64,000 nt of DNA from Kiritimatiellia bacterium (GCA_045656225.1 JAZOQU010000022.1:4732-68731); one strand, 5' to 3'; shown: positions 4,990-58,850, counted from the first letter of the stretch. Notes: generated from the sequence alone by a model not told the origin. Made by a program: numbers and translations.

Positions 4990-6159
4990 CTAAAGCCCCT
5001 TCTTCGCGTACTTAAGGCCGATCTCAAGCCCGCGTAATTCCGCAAGCCCGATAAGTCGGCCGCCGTAGCTGTAGCCGCAATAGCACTTACGCGACTTGTC
5101 GATCTCGAGAAACCGCCCGTGATCGGGACGCACGACGATCTTTTCGCCGCGACGCTTCTCTTCTTTAAGAAACGCTTCGAAGAGCGCGGGGATATCGGTC
5201 TGTCCGACAAGGTGGCACTGCGACTCGTGGAAAACCTTGTCGTCTGTATATTCGAGATTGCGGAAGTGGCAGAAGTAGACGCGCCTGCCGAACTTCTTCA
5301 TAATCTCGACCGCGTCGTTCGCCTTATCTCCGCCGAGAGAGCCCGTGCAGAGCGTAAGACCCACGTGCTTCGACGGGCACTTTTTATACATCTCGGCGAT
5401 ATCCCCGGCGTTTGAAAGAATACGCGGCAGTCCGAAAATCGGATGAGGCGGATCGTCGGGATGGATGCACATATTTACGCCCGTCTCCTCGAGTACCGGA
5501 GAAATTTCGTTCAGGAACCAATACATGTTCTCGCGCAGTTTCTTATCGTCGATACCGTCGTAAGTCTTTAGCTGGGCGAGAAATTCCCCAGGCGTCAGAT
5601 CGTCCACTGTGCCGGGCAGGCCGCACAGGACGGAATCCGCGACGCGCTTGCGGCCCTTAGCGTCGAGCTTCGCCCATACCTTCTTCGCCTTCGAGCGCGT
5701 TTTGGCGTCGTACTCTTTCTCCGCGCCGGGGCGCTTAAGATAAAACATATCGAACGCGGCAAGTTCGTACTCGTTGTATTCAAGACATGTCGAACCGTCG
5801 GGAAGCGCGTACTCGAGATTGGAGCGAGTCCAGTCGAGAACCGGCATAAAGTTGTAGCACACGGTCTTGATGCCGCACTTGGCGAGATTGCGAAGAGTCT
5901 GTTTATAATTGGCGACGTACTTGAGATAATCGCCCGTATGCTTCTTGATATCCTCGTGGATCGGCACCGACTCGACGACAGACCATACCATCCCCGCCTT
6001 TTTAACCTTGTCGGCACGGGACTTGATCTCCTTTACGGGCCACACCTCGCCCGGCTTGCGCTCGTAAAGCGCAGCGACCACGTCCGTCACGCCCGCCTGG
6101 CGAATCTCCTTAAGAGTTATCGAGTCGCCGTCACCGTACCATCTCCAGCCTTGTTTCAT
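4990..6159 (-). CDS. uxuA: Mannonate dehydratase
   Basis: Near-collinear with E. coli UxuA from the N-terminus (MKQGWRWYGDGD..., WSVVESVPIHEDIKKHTG, CYNFMPVLDWTR, HPDDPPHPIFGLPRI). Confidence 0.9.
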   Translation of the reverse strand: MKQGWRWYGDGDSITLKEIRQAGVTDVVAALYERKPGEVWPVKEIKSRADKVKKAGMVWSVVESVPIHEDIKKHTGDYLKYVANYKQTLRNLAKCGIKTVCYNFMPVLDWTRSNLEYALPDGSTCLEYNEYELAAFDMFYLKRPGAEKEYDAKTRSKAKKVWAKLDAKGRKRVADSVLCGLPGTVDDLTPGEFLAQLKTYDGIDDKKLRENMYWFLNEISPVLEETGVNMCIHPDDPPHPIFGLPRILSNAGDIAEMYKKCPSKHVGLTLCTGSLGGDKANDAVEIMKKFGRRVYFCHFRNLEYTDDKVFHESQCHLVGQTDIPALFEAFLKEEKRRGEKIVVRPDHGRFLEIDKSRKCYCGYSYGGRLIGLAELRGLEIGLKYAKKGL

Positions 6160-43457: not shown

Positions 43458-43560
43458 CCTTATAGGAAAAATAAACTATGTTATCATACCACAACACGCC
43501 TTATAAGGTCAATTAGAAGCCCATCTTTATAACTGTAGCCACTAAGAATCCAAAATCATA
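43458..43560. repeat. Direct repeat copy 1 (~100 bp) carrying two CCTTATAAGG-type palindromes
   Basis: Aligns with 44499..44600. The core ccttataaggNcaattagaaNcccatcNttataaNtgtagccactaagaatccaaaatcata is near-identical in both copies. Confidence 0.8.
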
Positions 43561-43628
43561 ATGCCCCAATATCATGTCTGCATTGGATGCAGCCCCTTAC
43601 CAGCGCTTTTATATAAATGCGGTGGTCG

Positions 43629-44108
43629 CTACAGCCTCTCAACTGCAGCGAAAACTTTTGCCGCGAGAGAGTCTGATAGCTGCCACATACCGACATTGCC
43701 GCGGCATGGGATGGGTTCGGGTAAGCGCCTTACGTTCGAGAGGTCCCACCAGAACCGATAGCCTTCATCCCATTTCTGCTTTGGCGTTGGCTTGGACTTA
43801 TAGACACCATCCTCCAACACTAGATTTAAGCCATCCCGCGCCTTGTAGTCACAAACTGCAATAATCTTACCAGGCCAATCCTTAACCTCGCGCCAAGAAG
43901 GAAGCTTCTCAAAATCCTCGTCCGAAAGCTCATGCGCAGCCATCGCCATAAACATCCCATATTGCTCCTTGCAAAACGACTTCGAACACGAAATCGCCAC
44001 CCGCCCTTCCCTCGGCTCTGGCATCATACTGCGATTCTCCGTCCGCTTGATTCCGTAAAGAATCATAATCGCATACGATCCAGTACAAGTAAAGGCGTTC
44101 ATAATCAA
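43629..44108 (-). CDS. ASCH-domain protein
   Basis: ASCH signature GxKxxExR present as GIKRTENR. About 70% amino-acid identity to the N-terminal half of the ASCH–RadC fusion at 49492..50319. Confidence 0.6.
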   Translation of the reverse strand: MIMNAFTCTGSYAIMILYGIKRTENRSMMPEPREGRVAISCSKSFCKEQYGMFMAMAAHELSDEDFEKLPSWREVKDWPGKIIAVCDYKARDGLNLVLEDGVYKSKPTPKQKWDEGYRFWWDLSNVRRLPEPIPCRGNVGMWQLSDSLAAKVFAAVERL

Positions 44109-44171
44109 GTATTCACAAAAACTGATTTAACATCTTTTAAAACACGTTCCGCTGTTCCGATTGCAAATCGA

Positions 44172-44492
44172 TCAGCAAGCTGCATAAGATCCCTTCTTAG
44201 TTTTACGCCCCGCCCTCTGCCGTTTCTTTTCAATATCTCTTCTCTTAAACAGTGATTCATCTATCTCAGGCGGTGCAATAGCCATAAGCCAATCCACCTT
44301 ACCGAGAGTACGGCAGTATGCAAGAAGCGAAAGAGTTGAAGAATTTTCCCCTAACTCAAGATTACGAATAGCCTTAAGCGACACGCCGCTCCTATCAGCA
44401 GCAGTTTGCTGTGATATATTAGCGGCAAGTCGCTGCGCCCTCAAGTTTTCACCCAGAACCTTGAGCATTTCTTCTTTTGTTCGATATATCAT
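44172..44492 (-). CDS. XRE-family helix-turn-helix transcriptional regulator
   Basis: Classic HTH_XRE: LRAQRLAANISQQTAADRSGVSLKAIRNLELGE. Immediately upstream of the ASCH gene. Confidence 0.6.
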   Translation of the reverse strand: MIYRTKEEMLKVLGENLRAQRLAANISQQTAADRSGVSLKAIRNLELGENSSTLSLLAYCRTLGKVDWLMAIAPPEIDESLFKRRDIEKKRQRAGRKTKKGSYAAC

Positions 44493-44498
44493 AAATCA

Positions 44499-44600
44499 TC
44501 TTATAAGGAAAATAAACAGCAATATTATAGCATAAGATTCCTTATAAGGCAATTAGAAACCCATCCTTATAATTGTAGCCACTAAGAATCCAAAATCATA
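44499..44600. repeat. Direct repeat copy 2 (~100 bp) carrying two CCTTATAAGG-type palindromes
   Basis: See copy 1. It lies directly upstream of the HTH gene start. Confidence 0.8.
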
Positions 44601-44848
44601 CAACTGCCCTGCGAGAGTTTTAAATTTCAACAAATCAAGCGTCGTTGTCCATAGTTTGCTTTCCTATGGCTTTAGCATAGACGACCTGGATGGATAGACG
44701 CTGAAATACTGTCTTGATTGCACATTAGAATTTTCCGCACAAGATTCTCATTTTCTCAAACGAAAGAAGATAACTCAAGATATTTGCCAGAAACACGAGA
44801 TTTTTGATTGCCTGCGCGGAGCTCGGCCCTAAGAAAGCACAAGATAAA

Positions 44849-44881
44849 AGTTGCAAAGTTGGTCAGACCTACTTTGCAACT
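44849..44881. repeat. 33-bp near-perfect palindrome AGTTGCAAAGT-tGGTCaGACCt-ACTTTGCAACT
   Basis: Inverted repeat read directly, with one mismatch pair. Homologous to the 45-bp palindrome at 45147..45191. Confidence 0.8.
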
Positions 44882-45146
44882 ATTATTACATCTAAGACTC
44901 CCATCACAACTTTGCCAATAGTGCAGCTGTACAATCTTACGATACGCTGTCCTTCGTGGAGAAGGCGAACTTGCGAATTGCGATTTTCGCTTTTTTGTGT
45001 TACACTACTCACCGTCTTAGGGAATTGGCCTTGCGACTTGTCGTATTGAGTCATCAAGCCCTGAGACATTTCTTTTGTTTCGGTTACATCGCAACAAACC
45101 TGACCATTTTCATTGTTTCACATTTAATCCGAGAATACAAATACGC

Positions 45147-45191
45147 ACCAAAAGTTGCAAAGTAGGTCTGACCTACTTTGCAACTTTTGGT
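45147..45191. repeat. 45-bp perfect palindrome (accaaaagttgcaaagtaggtc-t-gacctactttgcaacttttggt)
   Basis: 22-bp arms around a single central T, followed by TTATTT. Candidate bidirectional terminator, protein-binding site or MITE-like end. Confidence 0.8.
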
Positions 45192-45526
45192 TATTTCTTC
45201 GCTCCTCCGCATTTTGCGAAATCCGGCAAGCAAGGGATTGCGATAATCATTTACAAACAGGAAATTATCGGGATTTGCGCGACCGAAAAGCCCTCAGAGA
45301 TTGTGGATTGAGAAAGTTCGCAATCATACAATTACAATATCTTCTCAGCATTCGAAACAGAACTCTACCGCCGCATTTTGAGAAATGCGGCGGTAACTAC
45401 AGACAGCAGAATGCCGCGTAAATATGCCGCTGGACACAGTTTGCAAACTATGGATTAGCAGACGCTATTTAATAAGTCGGTGATGGTGGTGTCGAATGGC
45501 ATTGTAGCATACAATCATCTTTTAGT

Positions 45527-47533
45527 TCAATTGCCAAGCAGTCGCGAAAGCAGCGATCTTGACTTAAAGTCAATATCAAAGAAGTCTTTCGCCGCTGCCA
45601 AATCCATGATGACACTATCACGAGAACGTTTTGCACAAAGATTCTCCGGCAGCTCCTTCATCAATCGGTCAGCGTCCCAGTTTTCGCCAGCAACATATCG
45701 AAGTGTATTCATCCTCTTGTTTACTTCGAACGCATTGGGATTTGCTTGCCACGCCGTTTTAATTGTCTGTATGGCATATTTACCAGTGACCTTCTCACTG
45801 AAATAATCCTCCAAAGACAACTCCCGTATGAATGTAGGACAATTTGACAAATTTTCACTAAATATGGAACGCAAGATTACCGACGAAGCCTTAAGTATAT
45901 CTGGCGACTCTGATTCGGGGTTATCATCCTTGAGCGCCTCCATCAATTCAAGAACAGAATCAAGCATCCTACGAAGATACTCACGATAAAGCGCCGTTCC
46001 GATTTTTTGCTGAACAGATCGGACGATATTGCTTTTCATTACCTCCGTATTTGTAAGTCCAGCCTGAACGCGACAAATTACAGTTCGCCTTATAACTTCC
46101 TGTGCGACAGCCTTCACATCCTCATTTGCACTAATTACTACAGCGGGATAATTGAGAAGATGCTCAAGCGAACCGAAATCATCATTCTTAATCGTCTCAA
46201 TTGCGTGTTGATTAAACCTTGTATTAGTCAAATCGTCAACAATGATGGGCGCCCCTTGCACAGTACGTCGAAGCCCATCAATTGTCGTACGAGTAAACTC
46301 AGGCGCACTTATTTTCACCTTTTGTCCAATCATCATCTTAAGTAAGGTTTCCAGAAATGACGTCTTTCCAGCCTTAGACTGTCCATAGATGAGACCAAAC
46401 ACAGGATACGGAAGGGTTTTCTGATCATAACGCAAAGCTGTATCACGCATTACAGCCATAAAAGGCGAACAGAAGAACCAGTTCGCGAACTCGTAGTACC
46501 TATATTGCATCCCTTCGCAGTCACCATGGAATCTCTCAAAACCATTCATGTAACGAATAAAAAGTTCAACGTCAGATTTAATTTCATCTTGAGTAGGATG
46601 CAAATCAAGCGTAACACCATTAAGCAGCACACAACTCTTTTCAACATCAACGGCGAGCTGCGGATATTCACTCCTCAGTTCCTTCTCATGTTCGCTTTCC
46701 TTCACTTGCTGCCGTTTTACCTTCTGTATGACATCAGGCGTTACAAGAACTTTTCCTTTCCGCTTTTCTTCCTTTGAAATAGATATTGACGGCGCAATGC
46801 GTTTTGCCAAATTGCGAGTATCAAGAATAAAATTAACGTCCTCTTCCACATCCTTGACTGGCTCAATATAAATCGCCTTCTCAACCCTCGCAGTTTCAGC
46901 GATAGGTAATGCGTCTACATTCTCCGTGCTATCCGATATTTCAATAGCCTTTTTCGTTATAGTATCTACACTATCCTGTTTCAAATCCTCATAAGCCTCT
47001 TCAAACCGTTCGTATGCCTCCTGAGAATCAATATAACATATAATCTCTCTCTGTCGCCCGCCAAAAGCATTGAATGACATGTTTGCTGAACCGAATACAA
47101 CCCGAGCCCGTCCATCTTCCGCCTTGAGCAAATACAACTTTTCATGCGATAACCTTCTGCGCGCGACAAAAAGCCGCACATCACCACGCTCAACACGCGC
47201 AATCATCTTCTCCTTTGATGTAGAATCCGTCTTACGAATACGCTCCATTAACTTCGCCTGATAAGCCATTATCTCTTGAAGAGTATACGACATAACCTCT
47301 TCACATCCGAAAATAATTTCAGCGTCTTTGAACAAGTCAAGCAGTTGATATACAAAACCTATCCCCGATGAAAACGTAATTGCTTTGATTGAATTGAAAC
47401 CTGAAAAAAGTTCTTGCCACGTAATACTTTCTGAATAAACATAGTCCATCTTAACTACATCTATCTTGCTCATTCCACCATTTGACATCCCGTCAGATGA
47501 TGAAAATAAATCATCGCCAAAGTCTTTTGCCAT
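45527..47533 (-). CDS. Fused PLD-family nuclease and SF3-like P-loop NTPase (668 aa)
   Basis: N-terminal single HKD-type motif HEKLYLLKAEDGRARVVFGSANMS (HxK...D...GSxN). C-terminal Walker A GQSKAGKTS, Walker B IIVDDL, and a downstream VVISANE that resembles SF3-helicase motif C. Confidence 0.55.
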   Translation of the reverse strand: MAKDFGDDLFSSSDGMSNGGMSKIDVVKMDYVYSESITWQELFSGFNSIKAITFSSGIGFVYQLLDLFKDAEIIFGCEEVMSYTLQEIMAYQAKLMERIRKTDSTSKEKMIARVERGDVRLFVARRRLSHEKLYLLKAEDGRARVVFGSANMSFNAFGGRQREIICYIDSQEAYERFEEAYEDLKQDSVDTITKKAIEISDSTENVDALPIAETARVEKAIYIEPVKDVEEDVNFILDTRNLAKRIAPSISISKEEKRKGKVLVTPDVIQKVKRQQVKESEHEKELRSEYPQLAVDVEKSCVLLNGVTLDLHPTQDEIKSDVELFIRYMNGFERFHGDCEGMQYRYYEFANWFFCSPFMAVMRDTALRYDQKTLPYPVFGLIYGQSKAGKTSFLETLLKMMIGQKVKISAPEFTRTTIDGLRRTVQGAPIIVDDLTNTRFNQHAIETIKNDDFGSLEHLLNYPAVVISANEDVKAVAQEVIRRTVICRVQAGLTNTEVMKSNIVRSVQQKIGTALYREYLRRMLDSVLELMEALKDDNPESESPDILKASSVILRSIFSENLSNCPTFIRELSLEDYFSEKVTGKYAIQTIKTAWQANPNAFEVNKRMNTLRYVAGENWDADRLMKELPENLCAKRSRDSVIMDLAAAKDFFDIDFKSRSLLSRLLGN

Positions 47534-47662
47534 ACATCCTCCTTAAATTAAACTTTTGATGAAAATGTTGTAATCTCCATTTCTATTAGCTCAAACCGAG
47601 AAAGTAGGTCAGACATAACTTCTTAATTAAAAGTGTTAACATAAGCATCTTTACCTAATATC

Positions 47663-49465
47663 TCACAAAGCCTCATAATATTTCCTGATTTTTTCAGCCA
47701 TCATTTTACGACGCTTCGGCAAGAAGCACGTCTCAAAATCCTCAACACCCATCGTTATCACATCCTCTGGAACGCAATTCATTTCCATTGTCTGCTTCAC
47801 CATATCAATATCCGTCATTGATCCTATGACCGGACTCTTCGTTTCGCATTGCTTGAAAACACATCCGAAATACTCAGCGGGCGACTTTTTGCCGATTGCG
47901 ATGTTTATCGGAGTTTCTAAATAGGTGAAATTCGCCACCTGATTATACTGCGTAAACCGAAGCCCATTGTTCTTGAGGAATTCCTTCGGGAAAATATGGT
48001 GTACATCTCCATTATCAATAAGATTAGCAACCGCTGTTACCGAAAACAGGGACTGATCTCTAAAAAATACCTGTGCCGCCTTAAATACATTTAACGCAGG
48101 GCATTTAGCCGCCGACGTTTCCAGCTGTTGCACAATATTTACCGTCCAGAATGATTCCCCTAATTCTGCCGCTTCAATATCTGCAAGACACTTACGCACG
48201 CCTTTCTCTGCGATTGCGCGTAAATCTCGATCCATCTGAGATTCTGGAGACCCAGAATAACGCCCTGTCAATGTACTTAAGACGAACCACCTTCTGACAA
48301 ACGATTTAATTTCTGTAGCACCAACTTCTTTTGTCTCATTCAAGAGAAGATGCAATGTATAAGCGAAATCAAGCGACATTTGTGAGCGTAAGAGCTTAGA
48401 GGAAATAAACCCAGCCGACTCAATAGCCTCCACAAACTGCTTAAAATGATATTCCTTCACGAAGTTGTGAACACCAGACTCTAACTTGGCAAAGCTCTCC
48501 TGCATAATTTCGTCTTTAAAAGTACGATCCTTGAAATCACGTCCTGAAAGCAAACTGACAAGATCCTTCAATCTGCCGCGTCCGAACTTATGCATCATTG
48601 CCACTCGGAGCATATCACTATACTCAGGATCATAAATATCCTTGCGGTCATCCTTGAGCCATTTCATTTCGCCAGCATACGGCGTCGCCATAAACTCTAC
48701 ATCTTTCTCGACACTTGAATAGAACGCAGGATCAACCGCCAAATGACAAAAATAATCAATCGCCTTGCGCAAATCATTGCCTCCATAACGATTATCTGCC
48801 GCAATCTTCGACATTGCAAAATCAGCCTCATTAAGAATCTTACCTTGCGAATTTATGCGTACGAAAATCTCGGTAACCTCATCAATTCCAATATCCTGAC
48901 TAAGCTGAATTACGCCAATCTGACGCTGTTCAATGCGTAGCAACTCTCGAATCTTGGCATTTATCGCCTTGCGCTCCACGCCTAGGTTATCAGCAACATA
49001 CTGTTCTATAAATTCATAATCATCAAAATCCTTCTTAAAGAGAACGGAGATATCTGCAATCCAGCGCTTATCCTTTATATGAACCGGTGTCTGCACCTCA
49101 AAAGAAGGCTCTTCATCCGCCGCCCACGGATTAAATGCTATCTTGATCTGCTTAGATGAATAATCATCCCGCAAAACAGATCGCCCATCAATCGCCGTCA
49201 TAATAGCTGTGACGCGCTGCTGACCATCAATAAGAATCTTCTTCCCAAGCGACAACGATCCGTCCTTAAGCTTAACATCAGGATTTTGCCAGACAATAAT
49301 ATACCCTGCCGGATATCCACGATAAAGCGAATCTATCAAATCGCGGACCTGCGCACCGCTCCAAACAAACGGGCGCTGAATCTCCGGAATAGCAATCTCT
49401 CCATTCCTTACAAACCCAAGAATGTTCTCAATTGTCTTCTGCTCTATCGAATATTTCTCTGCCAT
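47663..49465 (-). CDS. GmrSD-family type IV restriction endonuclease (DUF262 plus DUF1524)
   Basis: N-terminal DUF262/ParB-like motif IPEIQRPFVWSGAQVRDLIDSLYRGYP. C-terminal DUF1524 His-Me finger motif DNGDVHHIFPKEF. 600 aa. Confidence 0.7.
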   Translation of the reverse strand: MAEKYSIEQKTIENILGFVRNGEIAIPEIQRPFVWSGAQVRDLIDSLYRGYPAGYIIVWQNPDVKLKDGSLSLGKKILIDGQQRVTAIMTAIDGRSVLRDDYSSKQIKIAFNPWAADEEPSFEVQTPVHIKDKRWIADISVLFKKDFDDYEFIEQYVADNLGVERKAINAKIRELLRIEQRQIGVIQLSQDIGIDEVTEIFVRINSQGKILNEADFAMSKIAADNRYGGNDLRKAIDYFCHLAVDPAFYSSVEKDVEFMATPYAGEMKWLKDDRKDIYDPEYSDMLRVAMMHKFGRGRLKDLVSLLSGRDFKDRTFKDEIMQESFAKLESGVHNFVKEYHFKQFVEAIESAGFISSKLLRSQMSLDFAYTLHLLLNETKEVGATEIKSFVRRWFVLSTLTGRYSGSPESQMDRDLRAIAEKGVRKCLADIEAAELGESFWTVNIVQQLETSAAKCPALNVFKAAQVFFRDQSLFSVTAVANLIDNGDVHHIFPKEFLKNNGLRFTQYNQVANFTYLETPINIAIGKKSPAEYFGCVFKQCETKSPVIGSMTDIDMVKQTMEMNCVPEDVITMGVEDFETCFLPKRRKMMAEKIRKYYEAL

Positions 49466-49491
49466 ATAAATTCTCCTTATTGCTTACGGTT

Positions 49492-50319
49492 TTAAAGTTT
49501 GTCCATCACTGACACATACCCTCGCCCTTCATCGCAATCAGGCGAACCAAGGATGAGGTGGTCAAGAAACTTGATACCAAGCAGTTGGGCGGCGGATTGC
49601 AATGCTTTAGTAATCTGCAAATCAGCCCTGCTCGGCGTAGGATTGCCGCTTGGATGATTGTGAGCGACGATGATTGCATCTGCCTGCGCCTTGAACGCCG
49701 CACGAAAGACTTCTCCCAAGTCCACGGTTGTTGTGCCTTGCGTGTGTCCGAGAGATACAAGCACAGGCAAACCAATCGGGCGACACTCCGCGTCAATCGG
49801 CAACACAAAGAAACCTTCCTGCTCACCCGCAATCGGAATTGCCACACGAAACAGCGGATAGGCGTCATCTGCCGTCTCAATGCGCGAGTTCAAAGCACAT
49901 TCAGCCGCAGACACTTTTGCCGCAAGATCGGACGGCATCTGCCACATGCCGACGTTGCCGCGGCAGGGAATCGGTTCGGGTAAACGCACAACGTTCAACA
50001 AATCCCACCAATACGGATAACCCTCGCCCCAAGATTCGGCTTTCTGCCTTTGCCGCGCCTTGTAGTCGCACACGCCAACAATCTTGCCCGGCCAGTTCTT
50101 CACCTCGCGCCACGCGGGCAGTTTCTCGAAATCCTCTGGCGACAGGCTCACCGACGCCCACGCGATGAACTGCCCGTACTCTTCTTTGCAAAACGACTTC
50201 GAACACGAAATCGCCGCCCGCCCCTCGCACGGCTCCGGCCACGCGCTGCGGTTCTCCGTGCGCTTGATTCCGTAAAGAATCAATATCGCGTATGCTCCAG
50301 TGCATGTAAAGGCGTTCAT
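49492..50319 (-). CDS. ASCH domain fused to a RadC-like JAB/MPN domain
   Basis: N-terminal ASCH (GIKRTENR) paralogous to 43629..44108. C-terminal JAMM-type motif VAHNHPSGNPTPSRADLQIT typical of RadC. Confidence 0.7.
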   Translation of the reverse strand: MNAFTCTGAYAILILYGIKRTENRSAWPEPCEGRAAISCSKSFCKEEYGQFIAWASVSLSPEDFEKLPAWREVKNWPGKIVGVCDYKARQRQKAESWGEGYPYWWDLLNVVRLPEPIPCRGNVGMWQMPSDLAAKVSAAECALNSRIETADDAYPLFRVAIPIAGEQEGFFVLPIDAECRPIGLPVLVSLGHTQGTTTVDLGEVFRAAFKAQADAIIVAHNHPSGNPTPSRADLQITKALQSAAQLLGIKFLDHLILGSPDCDEGRGYVSVMDKL

Positions 50320-50606
50320 AACTTACTTTGTGAGACTGCCGCGAATAATGGCAAATCAGTTTCTGAATCAACAAGTTCTATATTCTCGTTGTTCTCTCCA
50401 TAGAACTCAAATTTATGCTCGCGGCGAGAAATGCAAACGCCGCGTTTTTTCAATTCAACTGCAAACCACCGCCGTAATGACTGCGGCGTTGCTGCGAATT
50501 CATCAATAGAATCGAAATCTTCCCAACCGACATTTCCGTCAGCATCAGAAAATGGCTTGATTTTTAAAAGTTCATAGGTCATATTGACAGGACTTTTCAT
50601 TGACAT
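50316..50606 (-). CDS. Hypothetical protein (96 aa), first gene of the ASCH–JAB/GmrSD operon
   Basis: ATGA overlap with the downstream ASCH–RadC gene. No recognisable motif. Confidence 0.4.
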   Translation of the reverse strand: MSMKSPVNMTYELLKIKPFSDADGNVGWEDFDSIDEFAATPQSLRRWFAVELKKRGVCISRREHKFEFYGENNENIELVDSETDLPLFAAVSQSKL

Positions 50607-50780
50607 TCTGTTTTGATGCTATTCATCTCAGTTGTATAATTATCCTTACATAATTGGTATTCACAACGGAAGAAATCACTAGCACCATCATCATTCGTAT
50701 TCTTCATGAAGTGATAATTTTCCCCATGTCGTAAGCAAGATTAATCAACAGTTCTGTCGCCTTCACATAACAACACTTCA

Positions 50781-51779
50781 TTATCCCTTGAAAACATATT
50801 GACGATGATATTCCATGTATTTCTCTCTTTCATCATCTAATGGAAGTGCTTGAATATACGAACCCGTCTTGATATTACATTTAGCTTGGTTTGTGGGAGA
50901 TATCCAATTGGAGACTAACATACACTTCTTTTCATCAAAGGAAATAAACCCCTGATCAAACAAACGGTCATAAAGCGGAGATAATATGAATCCGTTTTTA
51001 GGATCAAATGCTTCATCGTCTTCTGATACAGAATATGGTTTTATATGACTCGCAACCAATAGTCTTTCATCAGAAATCTTGGTTATTGGACAATAGGGAC
51101 ACTCTTCCAAAAGTTTATCTCGATATCTCTTTTGGGCAACCGCATCACGATTACTTGTTTTTACAGATGTTTGTATCTCTTTCTCCTGTTTAGCGGCATT
51201 GTTATCACTAACAGAAGCTGTACCTTTCCCATAAGTAAACACTTGTGGAGTTAGCCCTCTTTGTTTTAATGCATCGAAATCCACGAAAAGTTTCCAGTAA
51301 TAACGAATCATCCCTTTGGGATCAGATAATCTCATAATAGAGATATAACTTATCAATGGAAGAGAAAGGGTTCTAAAAAGCTTGTATGCAAGATCATTGG
51401 AATTGATATATCCACGAGGTCCCGCAATTTGTGTTTGGACATGTACTTTAAATTCAATAATATCAGGCATCTTCAACAACGACCGAACACGCTCTTCCCA
51501 CAATTCGGGCATTTTGGATTTGCCTGCATAATTTTGAGTGGGGAACTTGTATTCCTTCTCGGCTGTCTGCATGTATTTCAATAAATCACTTTTCAAGAAA
51601 AAGCAATCTATAGTAGACGCGCCAAGAACGAACGAATGTAAATCAGATTTTGATCCGAAGTAGAATTTAGCCTCTCCGTTCCCTGTACCAAGTTTATTAG
51701 GTCCAAGAACATTGCAATCTGGAACTGTCAGAATGCGTGAGACATCTTGAAATTTATAAGTCTTTCCATCAATTCTCAT
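50781..51779 (-). CDS. HNH_2-type (His-Me finger) endonuclease, putative restriction enzyme partner of the adjacent methyltransferase
   Basis: C-terminal CPYCPITKISDERLLVASHIKPYS...NGFILSPLYDRLFDQGFISF, an ASHIKP...N...H-type HNH_2 core. 4-bp overlap with the methyltransferase stop. Confidence 0.6.
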   Translation of the reverse strand: MRIDGKTYKFQDVSRILTVPDCNVLGPNKLGTGNGEAKFYFGSKSDLHSFVLGASTIDCFFLKSDLLKYMQTAEKEYKFPTQNYAGKSKMPELWEERVRSLLKMPDIIEFKVHVQTQIAGPRGYINSNDLAYKLFRTLSLPLISYISIMRLSDPKGMIRYYWKLFVDFDALKQRGLTPQVFTYGKGTASVSDNNAAKQEKEIQTSVKTSNRDAVAQKRYRDKLLEECPYCPITKISDERLLVASHIKPYSVSEDDEAFDPKNGFILSPLYDRLFDQGFISFDEKKCMLVSNWISPTNQAKCNIKTGSYIQALPLDDEREKYMEYHRQYVFKG

Positions 51780-53848
51780 TTCTCGACCTCCTCCTTAAAC
51801 AATTCGGGAATAACATTTTTGATAGAGTCAAGTATCGCAACAAGCACATCAACGACAATAGCATTTCCTGCTTGCTGATACATTGGAGTGTCCGGAACAA
51901 CAATTTTAAAAGTATCGCTAAATCCCATCAGCCTGAGACATTCTCTCGGCGCTAATTTTCTAATTCTACCTTCCCTAGTTATGTAATTATCAACACCAGC
52001 TCTGTGCATTTTATGCATAGAGGTTAACAAAGGTCTTGCTATCTCCAAGTCAGTTTTGGGTCGAGAATAAAAGGTTTTAGTTCCTGTAGAAAGAACGTAC
52101 TTTCTCACCTTTTCAGAGAGAAAATATTTTTCAAGTTCAGGCATTCCAAAGCTCTTGGCAGTCTCTTCATCAACGAAAACAAAATCTCCGTGCCAATTAA
52201 ATTGCTGATTCTTCTTTTGACATAGCTGAACCTTGCCGTCAACTTGTGTATACCGCTTTGTAAGATTTCCCTCATCAAGAACAAATCGAACACCTTTTTC
52301 TGGAAGATAGTATTTACCTGGAACGACATCAAGTAAATAATCTTGCATCGTCGTTTTTAGTTTCTTCGGTGCTGGAAATTTGAAGCTTCCACCGATTTTT
52401 AAATCCTTACGAAACCCAACAACAAAAACACGTTCCCTATTTTGTGGTATTCCATAATCCTTAGAATTTAACACTTGATAATGCCAGTCATAACCTAAAT
52501 CTGTAAAAATCTTTGAAATAGTAGCCCATGTTTTTCCACCATCATTACTCAACAGTGCACGAACATTTTCATATATGAAACATTTTGGCTTAATTTCTGA
52601 TACTAAACGAGCATACTCATAAAACAATGTGCCACGAGTATCAGATAATCCCATCTGCTTGCCTACAAGACTAAACGATTGGCATGGGCTTCCTCCAACA
52701 AAGAGATCGACTTCATTTTTGTATGGCGCCCCCTCAAGAAATGTAACATTCCAATGAAATCTATCATCTGTAACCGGGTAATTCGCCATATATGATTGGC
52801 GAACCTTATTTCGAGGAAGCATTGGTCGATAAAGCATATCGACTAACTTCTTTCTTTCTTGCCAATCCTTTTCCGATTCCCAACCAACTCTAAATTTGTA
52901 AAATCCAATTGCTTCATGAAGCATTTGAACGCGGTCTTTTAACTCACGCTCAGGTCGCTTACTCATAGCTGGCGCACCGTCTAACAATGCCTGAATATTA
53001 TTGCGCTGATTTACAATCAACTCATAGGCCTGTTGAAGGCTTTCGCTGTTTGGCTTTAACTCGTCAATGCGCTCGCATAATTCCTTAAACGCCGCCACAC
53101 ATTCAGACCATTCTTTAGCACCACAAACAAAAGGAGTTTGGTCGCCATTATCACAAGCAAAAACAATTTCATGAGCGACATGAGTACGCAACAATGCTTG
53201 TTCAATAGCTCCTATCCCGCTAAAAACTGTCGCTAGTCTTAATTTTTCGCCTTTGGCTGATAACGCTTGTGCAACAACAGGCATTAAGCCATCGAAGAAA
53301 TCCAACTGTACTGGATTAAACGTTGTAGCTGAATGCCATTTCTTGAAATATGGTTTTAGTTTGTCAAAGATGTACGGCATTGACTTTCCGCCAGTTTTGG
53401 GGTAGGGCTTAGCGTAAAATGCCGCGTCAATCTTTACATTAGGACAACGCTGTGACGAAACAAAAACGTCTGCCGCGGAATCAGAAAGTGTCGCGGCAAA
53501 AGAAACCTTCTCTCCAAGTTCATATAGCGCGTATGCTGAACCATGCGCTTTATCTGCCGCGGCAACTTTATAACCATTTTCTTTGAGCCACGCGGCATCT
53601 ACAACTTCACGAAACTTTGCTTCGTAAGCTAAAGGAGTAAATCCATCAGCGATTAGAACGATTCGTGATATATTTTCATGAAACGCAACTTTCCCACAAG
53701 GCGGCAATGGAAGATTATAGAACTTCTTCTCCTTAATCCATTCCGCATTTTCCTTGCGAAAAGTCCCAACAAGAACAGCTGTATTAGCTTTATTTTCCCT
53801 TTTCTTTCCCATCTTCAATTCACTTTCTTTATCGCTCATATCATCCAC
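51776..53848 (-). CDS. DNA (cytosine-5)-methyltransferase with a ~200-aa N-terminal extension and a ~100-aa insertion between motifs I and IV
   Basis: Motif I ATVFSGIGA, IV GGSPCQSFS, VI ENVRALL, VIII QNRERVF, IX RKLAPRECLRLMGF, X GNAIVV. The likely true start is MSDKESELK at 53839, with AGGTGG 5 nt upstream. Confidence 0.85.
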   Translation of the reverse strand: MDDMSDKESELKMGKKRENKANTAVLVGTFRKENAEWIKEKKFYNLPLPPCGKVAFHENISRIVLIADGFTPLAYEAKFREVVDAAWLKENGYKVAAADKAHGSAYALYELGEKVSFAATLSDSAADVFVSSQRCPNVKIDAAFYAKPYPKTGGKSMPYIFDKLKPYFKKWHSATTFNPVQLDFFDGLMPVVAQALSAKGEKLRLATVFSGIGAIEQALLRTHVAHEIVFACDNGDQTPFVCGAKEWSECVAAFKELCERIDELKPNSESLQQAYELIVNQRNNIQALLDGAPAMSKRPERELKDRVQMLHEAIGFYKFRVGWESEKDWQERKKLVDMLYRPMLPRNKVRQSYMANYPVTDDRFHWNVTFLEGAPYKNEVDLFVGGSPCQSFSLVGKQMGLSDTRGTLFYEYARLVSEIKPKCFIYENVRALLSNDGGKTWATISKIFTDLGYDWHYQVLNSKDYGIPQNRERVFVVGFRKDLKIGGSFKFPAPKKLKTTMQDYLLDVVPGKYYLPEKGVRFVLDEGNLTKRYTQVDGKVQLCQKKNQQFNWHGDFVFVDEETAKSFGMPELEKYFLSEKVRKYVLSTGTKTFYSRPKTDLEIARPLLTSMHKMHRAGVDNYITREGRIRKLAPRECLRLMGFSDTFKIVVPDTPMYQQAGNAIVVDVLVAILDSIKNVIPELFKEEVEK
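53802..53841. repeat. 40-bp perfect direct repeat (copy 1) covering the methyltransferase start codon
   Basis: tttctttcccatcttcaattcactttctttatcgctcata is identical to 54965..55004 and encodes MSDKESELKMGKK on the minus strand. Confidence 0.85.
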
Positions 53849-53866
53849 CTATCATGCGCCCTGCCA

Positions 53867-55003
53867 TCAGTCGCATTTCCCTTTCTCAGAAAGACGATTT
53901 CGTGCAGCCTCTATCGCCAAACGGAACTTCGCCTCCAGCACCTTCTTCGGCGGCAATTCCGTCATATATGACGCGACCCTTATATTGCTACGCCCCAACT
54001 CCAACAATTCAACATGTTCCTCGTTCTTCCCAGCGCACAAAATTAATCCGATTGGCTTGTTTTCACCTTTGCACATCTCATTCTTCTCAAGCCATTTCAA
54101 ATACAACTCCATCTGACCTTTGTACTCAGCTTTAAAAGTATCTATTTTGAGGTCGATAGCCACAAGCCTGCGAAGACGCCTGTGGAAAAACAATAAATCA
54201 AGATAATAATCTTCGTTGTCCACGCTGATACGCTTCTGTTCTGCAAGAAACGCCATATCACCACCAAGCTCAAGTATAGCGTTCCTCATGTCTGCAACAA
54301 GAGCCTTCTCAAGTTCCTTCTCCGAAAAATTGCCGCGCAGCCCAAGAAAATCTAAAACATACGGATCTCGAAAGGCAAGGTCGGCAGACATCTTGCCTTC
54401 TTCACGCAGTGCTTCCAAATCCTTTTTTATAACTGCCTTAGGCTTTTTTGCTATTGCTGTACGTTCATACATCATCGAAGCGATGCGTCCTTGCAATGTA
54501 CGCGTCCCCCAATGTTCCGTTGCGCACATTTCAAGGTAGAACTGCCTCTTAAGAGAATCTGAAATGTAAGAGAGCGTCTTGATGTGCGTCCACGACAATT
54601 GTCTCCGCAATGCGGAGAGAATCTCATCCTCGCCGAAAGTCTCCGCGGCGCGGAGACAATGCCTCAACGTCTTCTCATCCCATCCACCCCCATGAAAAAG
54701 CATAAGACGAGATGCCAACCCCTTGACAACCTTCTTACCATACTCAGCGCGACCGCAACCGAGAATTTCTCTATTAATGCAGTTGCCAACATTCCAATTC
54801 AATTTGGTCAACTCAGTATTAACTCCAACAGCCACGCGCTCCCTTGCCGCTGTTATCAATGATGATATTTCGTTGAAGAGCCTGGTAATCGCATCATCTA
54901 CAAAATTGACACCTGATGATGATTGTCCTAAAACATCATTTTTCTCTTTAACTTCAGAACTCTTTTTCTTTCCCATCTTCAATTCACTTTCTTTATCGCT
55001 CAT
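53867..55003 (-). CDS. YhcG/DUF1016-family PDDEXK nuclease-like protein
   Basis: YhcG-like N-terminal motifs (LSWTHIKTL) and a C-terminal PDDEXK-like core (VAIDLKIDTFKAEYKGQMELYLKWL). Start set to MSDKESELK (55003); the track's 55048 start crosses the upstream HTH gene. Confidence 0.6.
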   Translation of the reverse strand: MSDKESELKMGKKKSSEVKEKNDVLGQSSSGVNFVDDAITRLFNEISSLITAARERVAVGVNTELTKLNWNVGNCINREILGCGRAEYGKKVVKGLASRLMLFHGGGWDEKTLRHCLRAAETFGEDEILSALRRQLSWTHIKTLSYISDSLKRQFYLEMCATEHWGTRTLQGRIASMMYERTAIAKKPKAVIKKDLEALREEGKMSADLAFRDPYVLDFLGLRGNFSEKELEKALVADMRNAILELGGDMAFLAEQKRISVDNEDYYLDLLFFHRRLRRLVAIDLKIDTFKAEYKGQMELYLKWLEKNEMCKGENKPIGLILCAGKNEEHVELLELGRSNIRVASYMTELPPKKVLEAKFRLAIEAARNRLSEKGKCD

Positions 55004-55004
55004 A
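54965..55004. repeat. 40-bp perfect direct repeat (copy 2) covering the YhcG-like start codon
   Basis: See copy 1. Confidence 0.85.
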
Positions 55005-55013
55005 GTCTTCGCC

Positions 55014-55217
55014 TCATTCATGCACAACGTCCATAATATCGCCAACATTGCAATTTAGCACCTTGCATATTCTCGTCATCAGATCAAACGAGATATACTC
55101 ATCTTTAGATAACTTTGCAAAGGTAGACGAAGACGCGCCGACAGCTATTCGCAGATCTGTCCGCGTCATTTCTTTATCTATAAGAAGCTTCCACAATTTC
55201 TTATACGAAACACCCAT
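55014..55217 (-). CDS. Small HTH (XRE-like) DNA-binding protein, candidate R–M controller (C-protein-like)
   Basis: 67 aa from MGVSYKKLWKLLIDKEMTRTDLRIAVGASSSTFAKLSK. AGGAG RBS 7 nt upstream. Extended -10 element TGgTATAAT about 35 bp upstream. Confidence 0.55.
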   Translation of the reverse strand: MGVSYKKLWKLLIDKEMTRTDLRIAVGASSSTFAKLSKDEYISFDLMTRICKVLNCNVGDIMDVVHE

Positions 55218-55344
55218 ACCATCTCCTAATTGACGTGTAATATTATACCAAATCACATCCTAAACATACAAATATAACCTTTGACTTTTCAAAGGTGGAC
55301 AGATATGAAAAAACTGCATTTTATACCTTATTTCATACCCAAAC

Positions 55345-55400
55345 AGTGCGCATCTCTCACTTGAAAAGTGCGCACTTCTCGACCAAGAGGTGCACACTTC
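55345..55400. promoter_or_regulatory. Three direct repeats (a)GTGCGCAcTTC phased at 22 bp
   Basis: agtgcgcatctc at 55345, agtgcgcacttc at 55367, ggtgcacacttc at 55389. They lie between small ORF copy 1 and the HTH promoter. Confidence 0.6.
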
Positions 55401-55457
55401 TTTTCTTGGAGCTTACGACACCCCATCAACCGCTTTGCGCAATCGCCGCTTGTCGGA

Positions 55458-55619
55458 TTACGCTTTCAGCAGCGCAAGAATACCGCATAAAATGATTATC
55501 CCGAGAAACCACACAACACACTCGAGGCACGACTGCGTGCCGTCGCATGAATCATCCGGTCCGGAAGGCATCCTTAAGCCTCTCTCAAACTCCTCTTTAA
55601 ATTTTTCCCATCTAGTCAT
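55458..55619 (-). CDS. Small tail-anchored Cys-rich membrane protein (53 aa), copy 1; below the ORF-track size cutoff
   Basis: MTRWEKFKEEFERGLRMPSGPDDSCDGTQSCLECVVWFLGIIILCGILALLKA, with RBS AAGGTGA 4 nt upstream. Lies inside a ~180-bp repeat (55444..55627). Confidence 0.45.
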   Translation of the reverse strand: MTRWEKFKEEFERGLRMPSGPDDSCDGTQSCLECVVWFLGIIILCGILALLKA

Positions 55620-55758
55620 AATCACCTTTTATCATAAAATATAAACCACACCTACCCCAATCCTGTTAATCCTGTCAAAAAAACTTTATCCACAAATCTG
55701 CACATATCGACACAAATCAATTTGTGGAAATTTGTGACGATTTGTGGACTCCAACTCC

Positions 55759-58615: not shown

Positions 58616-58659
58616 ATCTTCTAATCTCCAAGCAACGAAAGTATCAGCCGCTTGTCGGA

Positions 58660-58821
58660 TTACGCTTTAAGCAGAGCAAGAACAACGCACAAAACGATTA
58701 TCCCGAGAAACCACACGACACACTCAATGCACGACTGCGGGCCGTCGCATGAATCATCCGGTCCGGAAGGCATCCTTAAGCCTCTGTCAAACTCCTCTTT
58801 AAATTTTTCCCATCTAGTCAT
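58660..58821 (-). CDS. Small tail-anchored Cys-rich membrane protein (53 aa), copy 2
   Basis: MTRWEKFKEEFDRGLRMPSGPDDSCDGPQSCIECVVWFLGIIVLCVVLALLKA, with RBS GGTGA. Lies inside repeat 58644..58827, 30 bp downstream of the GH gene stop. Confidence 0.45.
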   Translation of the reverse strand: MTRWEKFKEEFDRGLRMPSGPDDSCDGPQSCIECVVWFLGIIVLCVVLALLKA

Positions 58822-58850
58822 AATCACCATCGCTCCACACTTGCAGAAAT

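Follow-up and report, generated by a model that had tools for sequence, protein, structure and literature searches.

An operon of two probable modules in a Kiritimatiellia defence island: an HTH-YhcG head and a C5-methyltransferase-HNH pair meeting at a repeated leader

Results and Discussion

Operon organization

The stretch of DNA analysed here, referred to as the window, comprises 64,000 nucleotides from a Kiritimatiellia bacterium (GCA_045656225.1 JAZOQU010000022.1:4732-68731) and carries on its minus strand four closely spaced open reading frames (ORFs) encoding a helix-turn-helix (HTH) protein of the HTH_26 family, a YhcG protein, a C5 cytosine DNA methyltransferase and an HNH_2 nuclease (Table 1). 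These genes probably form one co-directional operon built from two separable modules, an HTH-YhcG head and a methyltransferase-HNH cargo, that are joined at a repeated leader/junction. This interpretation is carried by observations on the architecture of the operon, a head that is conserved, a cargo that stands on its own, a junction that is repeated and the breakpoints of the mosaic. More tentatively, the head and the partly coding junction/leader of ~90 nt may constitute a platform on which gut bacteria of the Planctomycetes-Verrucomicrobia-Chlamydiae (PVC) group carry cassettes of defence genes without an integrase, these cassettes being exchanged, excised and re-inserted by recombination between junction copies; as part of the same tentative proposal, YhcG might join in exchange or sensing and the N-terminal domain of the methyltransferase would be a new module of 5-methylcytosine (5mC) methyltransferases.

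The four ORFs and their domains had been called by an earlier reading made from the sequence alone (the sequence-only reading), and Pfam and PADLOC searches confirm all of them at the same coordinates. The genes are co-directional, with gaps of 10-11 nt between HTH and YhcG and 27 nt between YhcG and methyltransferase, and no promoter or terminator of note lies between them. The likely start codons of the YhcG and methyltransferase genes are ATG 55003 and ATG 53839, rather than the starts of longer ORFs. As that reading also stated, the stop codon of the methyltransferase overlaps the start of the HNH gene; the overlap is ATGA, behind the ribosome-binding site AAGGAGGAGG. The methyltransferase and HNH genes have a guanine-plus-cytosine (GC) content of 37-40% and the YhcG gene one of 45%, in a flanking genome of ~50%. 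A generic promoter and terminator scan returned sites no more numerous than in shuffled sequence, with the exception of a palindrome upstream of the HTH gene, and an Rfam scan of window 43-57 kb (E up to 1) returned nothing relevant.

A repeated leader and junction

Overlooked in the earlier reading is a perfect 41-nt direct repeat (53800-53840 and 54964-55004) that starts both the YhcG and the methyltransferase genes, providing the ATG and first 13 codons (MSDKESELKMGKK) of each. A degenerate 25-nt pattern of this leader occurs at only those two places in the 64 kb, with 0 occurrences expected by chance. When scanned with the pattern, the genome_contigs collection gave 3 true and 4 chance matches and the metagenome_contigs collection 3 true and 3 chance matches, one chance match being an enterobacterial regulator that starts MSDKESEM; two of the leader loci belong to Kiritimatiellae/Kiritimatiellia bins. 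Related leaders are located directly after the HTH gene in loci L001, L009, L037-L046 and L049-L054. Outside the window, at least eight unrelated genes begin with this leader and junction. In-frame fusions to the leader comprise two types of YhcG, a 458-aa protein and five C5-methyltransferases, two of which carry the N-terminal domain; a third YhcG type (L014) has its own start and not the leader, and leader relics of 8-12 codons are present in L026, L037 and L049.

The leader forms the last part of a junction that recurs behind the three YhcG types and an RloB-like gene, in the order of a tail encoding ..KKGKC[D/A/G]*, a segment containing the ribosome-binding site, and the leader. The tail appears to be native to YhcG type 3. 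The window junction is 97% identical to that of L014 despite different neighbouring genes, and the stretch from the YhcG stop to the second ATG (TGGCAGGGCGCATGATAGGTGGATGAT) resembles the 3′ end of the HTH gene and its spacer (GGACGTTGTGCATGAATGAGGTGG...).

Comparison with related loci reveals that the window is a mosaic joined in the leader. Positions 53800-55447, comprising the upstream region, HTH, leader, YhcG, junction and second leader, are 98.6% identical to L050 5558-7205, and positions 53815-55442 are 94% identical to L009; on the other side, positions 50772-53850 (leader, methyltransferase and HNH) are 88% identical to L001 7992-11086. The tracts overlap solely in ~50 nt around the second leader, where the L050 and L009 matches run out at 53800 and 53815 and the L001 match sets in at 53850. 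Both copies of the repeat, each a 41-nt perfect core or ~50-75 nt with its diverged part, align to a single copy at L001 7992-8040. Direct repeats of more than 30 bp, a single copy in the uninserted relative and the lack of a mobility gene are all found here, and are the features by which insertion with long target duplication was described for restriction-modification genes (Furuta, Abe and Kobayashi 2010; PMC2853133). Because the segment before the second leader resembles the HTH 3′ end and spacer, the arrangement looks like such an insertion, with the HTH-to-gene boundary as the duplicated target.

If the junction were instead a dedicated attC-like site for site-specific recombination, served by a recombinase, rather than a passive patch of homology, this would account for a ~90-nt conserved element at every cassette boundary, for promoterless cassettes in the same direction behind one promoter, for a partial hairpin across the stop codon and for the truncated leader relics. 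This alternative is improbable, as no integrase or recombinase was found in the window island or the related loci read, no Rfam or attC-like match was obtained, the hairpin is missing from some copies, and the breakpoints vary inside the element.

Conservation of the HTH-YhcG head

In the index of the assembly collection, 192 blocks contain the identical 67-aa HTH protein, and 23 contigs from these were read. On 22 of these, a YhcG gene begins 8 nt after the HTH gene, the remaining contig carrying ORF6N. The cargo behind HTH-YhcG varies, with examples including a 284-aa HNH protein with NUDIX and a PLD/helicase/DUF3427 protein; DUF6119 with two methyltransferases, AAA_5 and Fic; and a Dam-like methyltransferase with an AAA protein and two methyltransferases. 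The chromosomal surroundings of the heads also differ among contigs. The exact window YhcG is present on 7 other contigs with two other cargoes, and three YhcG types that are 26-33% identical to one another occupy the same slot. An exception is found in L001-L003, where the order is HTH-methyltransferase-HNH with no YhcG. HTH-YhcG is best described as a conserved unit, or head, that appears to front many defence operons and to be separate from the methyltransferase-HNH pair; it seems to belong to PVC-group gut bacteria (Kiritimatiellia, Lentisphaeria), and its HTH, a regulator of repressor type, is in many cases identical. The palindrome and extended -10 promoter described below are part of this head. 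The sequence-only reading had YhcG wedged between a controller and the methyltransferase, which is at odds with the 22 contigs: it is HTH-YhcG that is conserved and the pair that is swappable cargo. A simple insertion of YhcG into a controller-methyltransferase-restriction (C-M-R) operon was considered and is contradicted, HTH-YhcG being the commoner arrangement.

The YhcG protein matches DUF1016_N (E 5.7e-35), YhcG_C (E 2.8e-45) and PADLOC PDC-S02 (E 4.6e-114), and a D..D-L-K motif is present. In the literature, YhcG/PDC-S02 was found in survey mentions only, with no published defence phenotype, and has candidate status in PADLOC. The commonest cargo behind the junction/leader is a pair of 458-aa and 305-aa proteins, a candidate uncharacterised defence system; it lies at L009 4525-6837 and also in L014 and L017, the 458-aa protein having no Pfam match and the 305-aa protein a C-terminal D..E-x-K-like motif.

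Upstream of the HTH gene, an extended -10 element (TGGTATAAT, 55250-55242), a weak -35 element (TTGTAT, 55271-55266) and an AGGAG ribosome-binding site were read from the sequence; the -35 matches three of six consensus positions, and the promoter was therefore not scored in the generic scan. Both the extended -10 and the AGGAG site are conserved in 12 of 12 heads compared and the TTGTAT in 11, while the palindrome ACCTTTGAaaagTCAAAGGT is identical or near-identical in 11 of the 12, with one substitution in L043. Homology of the window upstream region with L001 starts exactly at this palindrome. It is the one conserved 8+8 palindrome there, with no second box, and is a candidate operator only. 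The HTH gene call in the heads of L049-L053 is 74 aa long and runs into the start of YhcG (L049 locus 5787-6011); these heads have GACCGAGG before the leader where the window has the stop-containing GAATGAGG, the HTH stop codon apparently having been lost.

The HTH protein has a VanU-like NCBIfam match of 84 bits, under the cutoff of 150, and matches the VanU-like PDB entry 3tyr (E 1.3e-19). No C-protein model was matched in PADLOC, and the PDB matches comprise only 3tyr and none of C.AhdI, C.Esp1396I or C.BclI. The small gene with an upstream extended -10 promoter that the earlier reading described is thus present, but its controller-like character does not hold up, as there is no C-protein match and the identical protein fronts other cargo. 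A role as a dedicated or canonical C protein is not supported by these comparisons. Since one homologue set (P0065) fuses a homologous HTH_26 to the methyltransferase, the HTH_26 family can apparently serve restriction-modification pairs while not being dedicated to them.

That the four genes form a single restriction-modification system, in which the HTH is the C protein and YhcG a second nuclease of the system, would fit their common direction, the gaps of 10 and 27 nt with no notable internal promoter or terminator, the directly adjacent HTH, methyltransferase and HNH genes of L001, and the P0065 fusion. DUF1016 genes are, in addition, often embedded in restriction-modification loci (PMC9881135). 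We give this explanation a low probability, because three of the five homologue sets examined have the pair with neither HTH nor YhcG, HTH-YhcG has non-restriction cargo in most contigs, and the HTH matches no C-protein model or structure.

The methyltransferase-HNH pair

As cargo of the proposed two-module operon, the methyltransferase and HNH genes are constant partners. Methyltransferase homologues are abundant. An HNH_2 gene of 326-332 aa is located directly 3′ of the methyltransferase in the window and in five of five homologue sets examined. In three of these sets the methyltransferase is identical to that of the window over its full length at 95% (P0001, L001-L003), 77% (P0005, L004-L008) and 64% (P0038, L030-L033); the other two have cores that are 77-78% identical and lack the N-terminal domain, one being a 492-aa form (P0050, L034-L036) and the other the HTH_26::methyltransferase fusion (P0065, L029). 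In L004-L008, the pair stands alone between moxR and DUF58 genes, with neither HTH nor YhcG. The HNH gene is split in L006 and L008 beside an intact methyltransferase, which is the usual pattern of a toxic restriction gene and would be consistent with a toxic nuclease. A Vsr gene is found 3′ of the pair in L029. Both the target-recognition region of the methyltransferase and the N-terminal domain of the HNH protein are highly conserved across the family.

On the basis of constant adjacency, solo insertion, decay of the HNH gene and conserved recognition regions, we infer that the two genes form an autonomous Type II restriction-modification pair with one conserved specificity, in agreement with the Type II-style pair proposed in the sequence-only reading. 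The pair represents an uncharacterised but widespread family of C5-methyltransferase with HNH nuclease, which ranges over metagenome bins of Kiritimatiellia, Lentisphaeria, Fibrobacter, Bacteroidaceae and Clostridia. In L030-L033 (2703-3956), a 174-aa fragment with DUF1016_N only and a Trypsin_2 gene are located upstream of the P0038 pair; remnants of YhcG therefore seem to recur beside this family in a different arrangement.

The HNH protein contains PF13391 HNH_2 at aa 230-282 (E 1.5e-10, 41 bits against a cutoff of 21) and is matched by HNH and REase_II in PADLOC (E 1e-21 to 1e-22). Residues C227, C230, H245 and N262 are invariant across 52 homologues, as are many polar residues of the N-terminal domain, and full-length homologues in Lentisphaeria, Evtepia and Bacteroidaceae bins are 50-92% identical over 100% of the length. 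The AlphaFold2 model (predicted local distance difference test score, pLDDT, 85) consists of a beta-rich region at aa 1-176, a disordered stretch, a long helix at 195-226 and the HNH domain. Searches with the N-terminal domain gave only noise in Pfam (E up to 5) and in PDB profiles (E up to 10), with no EVE, SRA or PUA match; Foldseek gave weak matches to the B3 pseudobarrels LEC2, UbaLAI-N, BfiI and ARF1.

The methyltransferase and its accessory regions

The methyltransferase matches PF00145 DNA_methylase (E 2.3e-67) and TIGR00675 (E 7e-70), is labelled MTase_II by PADLOC, and has M.HhaI as its best PDB match (E 3.5e-43). C5-methyltransferase motifs I, IV, VI, VIII, IX and X are all present and in order, as the sequence-only reading had listed them, with FSGIG at 206, FACDN at 227, PCQ at 385, ENV at 424, QNRER at 466, RECLRLMGF at 632 and GNAIV at 658; from these motifs the enzyme is predicted to deposit 5mC, for which the Vsr gene beside a homologous pair (L029) gives indirect support only. 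An exact-sequence look-up of the 687-aa and 690-aa forms found no record. The PF00145 alignment is confined to aa 350-677 because an insertion follows motif II. The insertion reported earlier is real but larger than the ~100 aa given, since the distance of 179 aa from motif I to motif IV puts it at ~115 aa. It is modelled by AlphaFold2 as 4-5 helices at aa 244-353 (pLDDT 78-96).

This helical insertion is kept in all 120 listed homologues that cover the region, among them a subfamily of 730-776 aa and forms of 486-565 aa beginning at motif I. Plasmid methyltransferases of Acinetobacter and Vitreoscilla, which adjoin Vsr and LlaJI-type genes and share 61% identity over aa 326-687, do not have it. 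Taken together, this distribution indicates that the insertion is a lineage trait of this methyltransferase group, and within the lineage every partner gene examined is this HNH. The earlier reading had asked whether such insertions are common in characterised enzymes; they are common among uncharacterised homologues only.

Some 200 aa precede motif I, and the ~200-aa N-terminal domain without known function described in the earlier reading is borne out, with no Pfam or PDB match and a family of 371 clusters. The AlphaFold2 model is alpha/beta, with strands at 20-26, 40-45, 57-63, 70-81, 102-111 and 123-128, helices between them and a pLDDT of mostly 70-93. Only noise was returned in Pfam (E up to 5, alignment members) and PDB profile searches (E up to 10) of this domain, and Foldseek of the full methyltransferase model against BFVD returned C5-methyltransferases only and was uninformative for the domain. 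Those 371 clusters were retrieved when 1.84 billion representatives were searched with a profile (E up to 1e-3), and in all cases the domain occupies the N-terminus; nine of ten sampled proteins are C5-methyltransferases, whose cores differ, several having an uninterrupted PF00145 alignment and one being a tandem methyltransferase. In L016, the leader and an 84% identical N-terminal domain are joined to a Dcm-like core that lacks the insertion, and some close homologues of the window methyltransferase have no N-terminal domain at all. Genes for an EcoRII-like 392-aa nuclease and then Vsr follow the fusion (L016 1761-4539). By comparison of these proteins, L016 shows domain shuffling that would be between restriction-modification systems of different specificity.

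Because the family sits on varied cores, is swapped in L016 and is missing from some close homologues, the N-terminal domain is, as far as sequence comparison goes, an accessory domain that is portable and specific to C5-methyltransferases, whatever sequence these recognise. As it rides on cores of different specificity, our best guess for its role is engagement of non-specific or hemimethylated DNA, or regulation. That a ~160-aa domain outside Pfam forms 371 clusters and is nearly confined to the N-termini of C5-methyltransferases whose cores vary suggests that cytosine methylation in bacteria involves a general accessory function that has gone unrecognised. A PD-(D/E)XK motif in this domain (D64..E73-A-K75) was considered and dropped, being unconserved among homologues, and homology with the N-terminal domain of the HNH protein was rejected at a profile-profile probability of 0.2, the two being unrelated.

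A model for operon function and cargo turnover

In the proposed two-module operon, a single transcript would run from the extended -10 promoter and the HTH protein may autoregulate the whole operon through the palindrome, its predicted operator. Each cassette would be translated from its own junction copy by means of the ribosome-binding site and leader ATG: the ~90-nt junction, consisting of the upstream tail, a putative copy of the HTH 3′ end with the ribosome-binding site and the in-frame leader (MS[DS]K[EK]S..), would give a ribosome-binding site, ATG and first 9-13 codons to whichever gene follows. The methyltransferase would mark host cytosines within the target of the HNH enzyme and thereby protect it from cutting, with the HNH N-terminal domain reading this target, the linker helix following and the HNH domain probably dimerising. 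Cargo turnover would proceed by homologous recombination or gene conversion between junction/leader copies, as the mosaics suggest, and may include excision of circles with Campbell-type re-insertion.

A constant head with a start-donating junction, allowing unrelated defence genes to swap in frame, offers a view of how defence operons are rebuilt. If the platform proposal is true, a recombining gene would gain a promoter, a regulator, a ribosome-binding site and a start codon. If the arrangement is general, it would represent a sequence-level mechanism for integrase-free cargo turnover in defence islands, and searches with the leader/junction motif could turn up new defence genes, of which the 458-aa and 305-aa pair is a candidate example.

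Several points speak against parts of this model. None of the independent contigs crosses the join between YhcG and the methyltransferase. The idea of a conserved RNA hairpin over the stop codon of YhcG was rejected, the hairpin being lost in L026 and only 5 bp in others, and the palindrome also scores as a weak terminator. With respect to the nuclease, Foldseek places VcaM4I first (E 3e-9, 258-275 aligned columns, template modelling (TM) score 0.32) and TagI second, and the closest solved relative of the HNH domain is likewise VcaM4I, a modification-dependent enzyme with an identical sensor-linker-HNH layout.

The YhcG-methyltransferase adjacency could be an assembly chimera formed at the repeated leader, with the two modules residing in different strains or loci. 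The head contigs L049-L054 and the methyltransferase-HNH contigs L047 and L048 are from the same sample series at 98% identity with none spanning both, L047 and L048 covering only part of the methyltransferase, HNH, p96 and RadC, and the join falls exactly at the repeat. A chimera is nevertheless unlikely: the repeat of ~41-50 nt is shorter than the k=141 final k-mers of related assemblies, both island flanks match the flanks of related islands, and the same leader-mediated arrangement is present with other cargo in many independent contigs.

The structural resemblance to VcaM4I, an EVE-linker-HNH modification-dependent endonuclease (PMC7897488), raises the question of whether the HNH protein is a modification-dependent (Type IV-like) nuclease and not a methylation-sensitive partner. 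The HNH domain and linker match VcaM4I (PDB 6yex) at E 9e-27, a profile match limited to aa 196-328, and together with the Foldseek ranking this sensor-linker-HNH layout is that of NTP-independent modification-dependent endonucleases. Such a role is unlikely because of the strict coupling to a 5mC methyltransferase, and the Type IV-like explanation has little probability in our view: the translationally coupled pairing is kept over more than 40% sequence divergence, it is the nuclease gene that decays while the methyltransferase is intact, and the N-terminal domain has no EVE, SRA or PUA sequence match, its weak fold matches being also to sequence-reading B3 pseudobarrels (UbaLAI, BfiI and LEC2).

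Table 1. Operon features on the window, with positions counted from its first nucleotide
Feature	Position	Strand	Basis or remark
Palindrome 8+8 ACCTTTGAaaagTCAAAGGT	55277..55296	-	Just 5′ of -35; candidate operator or insulating terminator (putative function)
Promoter: -35 TTGTAT, 18-nt spacer, extended -10 TGGTATAAT	55242..55271	-	Read from sequence
HTH_26 Cro/C1-type regulator, 67 aa, first gene of the operon	55014..55217	-	Pfam HTH_26 E 6.7e-18
Leader copy 1 (ATG and first 13 codons of YhcG, MSDKESELKMGKK)	54964..55004	-	Perfect 41-nt direct repeat
YhcG/DUF1016 PD-(D/E)XK protein, 378 aa	53867..55003	-	Pfam and PADLOC PDC-S02
Inter-cassette junction: upstream-gene tail (..KGKCD*) then TGGCAGGGCGCATGATAGGTGGATGAT with ribosome-binding site	53841..53886	-	Alignment of 12 junctions
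Leader copy 2 (ATG and first 13 codons of methyltransferase); mosaic crossover zone	53800..53840	-	Perfect 41-nt repeat
C5 cytosine DNA methyltransferase, 687 aa	51776..53839	-	Pfam, TIGR dcm, motifs, M.HhaI PDB match
Methyltransferase N-terminal accessory domain, aa ~18-176, alpha/beta	53312..53788	-	AlphaFold2 model
Methyltransferase helical insertion, ~115 aa, aa ~232-343, 4-5 helices, between motif II and motif III/IV	52811..53146	-	AlphaFold2 and homologues
HNH_2 endonuclease, 332 aa	50781..51779	-	Pfam, PADLOC, AlphaFold2
HNH protein N-terminal beta-rich domain, aa 1-176	51252-51779	-	AlphaFold2 model
HNH domain, aa 227-332, after linker helix	50784-51101	-	Pfam, PDB profile match

The surrounding defence island

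The operon is part of a low-GC (~43% against ~50%) defence island of ~12 kb (window 43500-55700) that lies between pflA/pflB and a NUDIX gene and contains no tRNA gene and no integrase. On the 3′ side of the HNH gene are a 96-aa ORF and then a RadC/JAB protein with an ASCH-like N-terminus (49492-50319), and the same side also encodes a GmrSD-type protein (47663-49465) and a PLD (NgoFVII-like) plus P-loop protein (45527-47533). At the equivalent place L001 has Hachiman (HamA and helicase), and its distal flank is common with window 44196-45460.

Further repeats are present in and beside the island. A 51-nt direct repeat, 94% identical, at 43510-43560 and 44550-44600 surrounds a 1-kb segment with genes for an ASCH-like 159-aa protein and a 106-aa HTH protein; the segment 43510-44600 has the appearance of a second cassette with long direct repeats at its ends. 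A 269-nt repeat, 78% identical, at 43836-44104 and 50053-50321 reflects duplication of an ASCH-like gene, free-standing in one copy and the RadC/JAB N-terminus in the other. A 182-nt direct repeat, 94% identical, at 55445-55626 and 58647-58828 encodes a small membrane-protein ORF of 55-56 aa (MIMTRWEKFKEEF...); its copies bracket 3.2 kb containing a NUDIX gene, a 244-aa secreted protein and an MBL-fold protein, and the repeat adjoins the head in L014 and L049 as well.

Comparison with known systems

Integrons consist of an intI integrase and attC sites, with promoterless cassettes arrayed behind one promoter. The window arrangement is similar in having promoterless cassettes of one orientation behind a single promoter, with a conserved boundary element between them, however it has no integrase, the boundary is partly coding (upstream tail and downstream leader) and no attC-type fold is supported.

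C proteins, exemplified by the PvuII, AhdI and Esp1396I controllers, act with paired C-boxes and normally precede the nuclease gene. As in those systems, a small Cro/C1-type HTH gene comes first in the window operon, and its promoter has an adjacent palindrome. The window HTH differs in having no C-protein sequence match and a single palindrome in place of paired C-boxes; in addition, the identical HTH heads operons without restriction-modification genes, its usual neighbour being YhcG.

M.SsoII and M.EcoRII are C5 methyltransferases with regulatory N-terminal HTH regions, and the P0065 homologue, in which HTH_26 is fused to the core of this methyltransferase, is comparable to them. By analogy, the fusion suggests that the methyltransferase or the operon may be regulated by this HTH family. 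In the window, by contrast, the HTH is a separate gene and the N-terminus of the methyltransferase is a non-HTH alpha/beta domain.

The pair resembles Type II systems of a C5-methyltransferase and an HNH (beta-beta-alpha-Me) nuclease in its complete Dcm-family motifs, its coupled adjacent nuclease, its mobility as two genes, the decay of the nuclease gene and the association with Vsr, but it has no close characterised member and its methyltransferase carries the N-terminal domain and ~115-aa insertion. With the VcaM4I-type EVE-HNH enzymes (PMC7897488), the nuclease shares the HNH_2 subfamily and the order of N-terminal domain, linker helix and HNH; VcaM4I is solitary and needs 5mC or 5hmC (5-hydroxymethylcytosine), whereas the nuclease of the window is firmly tied to a 5mC methyltransferase, and no EVE/PUA signature can be detected in the sequence of the nuclease's N-terminal domain.

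Genes for PD-(D/E)XK YhcG proteins are found beside methyltransferases in the defence operons of restriction-modification, BREX and inversion loci (PMC9881135; PMC1189080), as in the window. What sets YhcG apart here is its fixed pairing with one particular HTH at the front of the operon, with three divergent alleles in one slot. The long-target-duplication insertions of restriction-modification genes (PMC2853133) share with the window a cassette between direct repeats of tens of bp and no transposase or integrase. The window differs in that the duplicated target is a gene start, so that each cassette is fused in frame to the leader, and in that the repeat recurs as the common junction of many unrelated cassettes.

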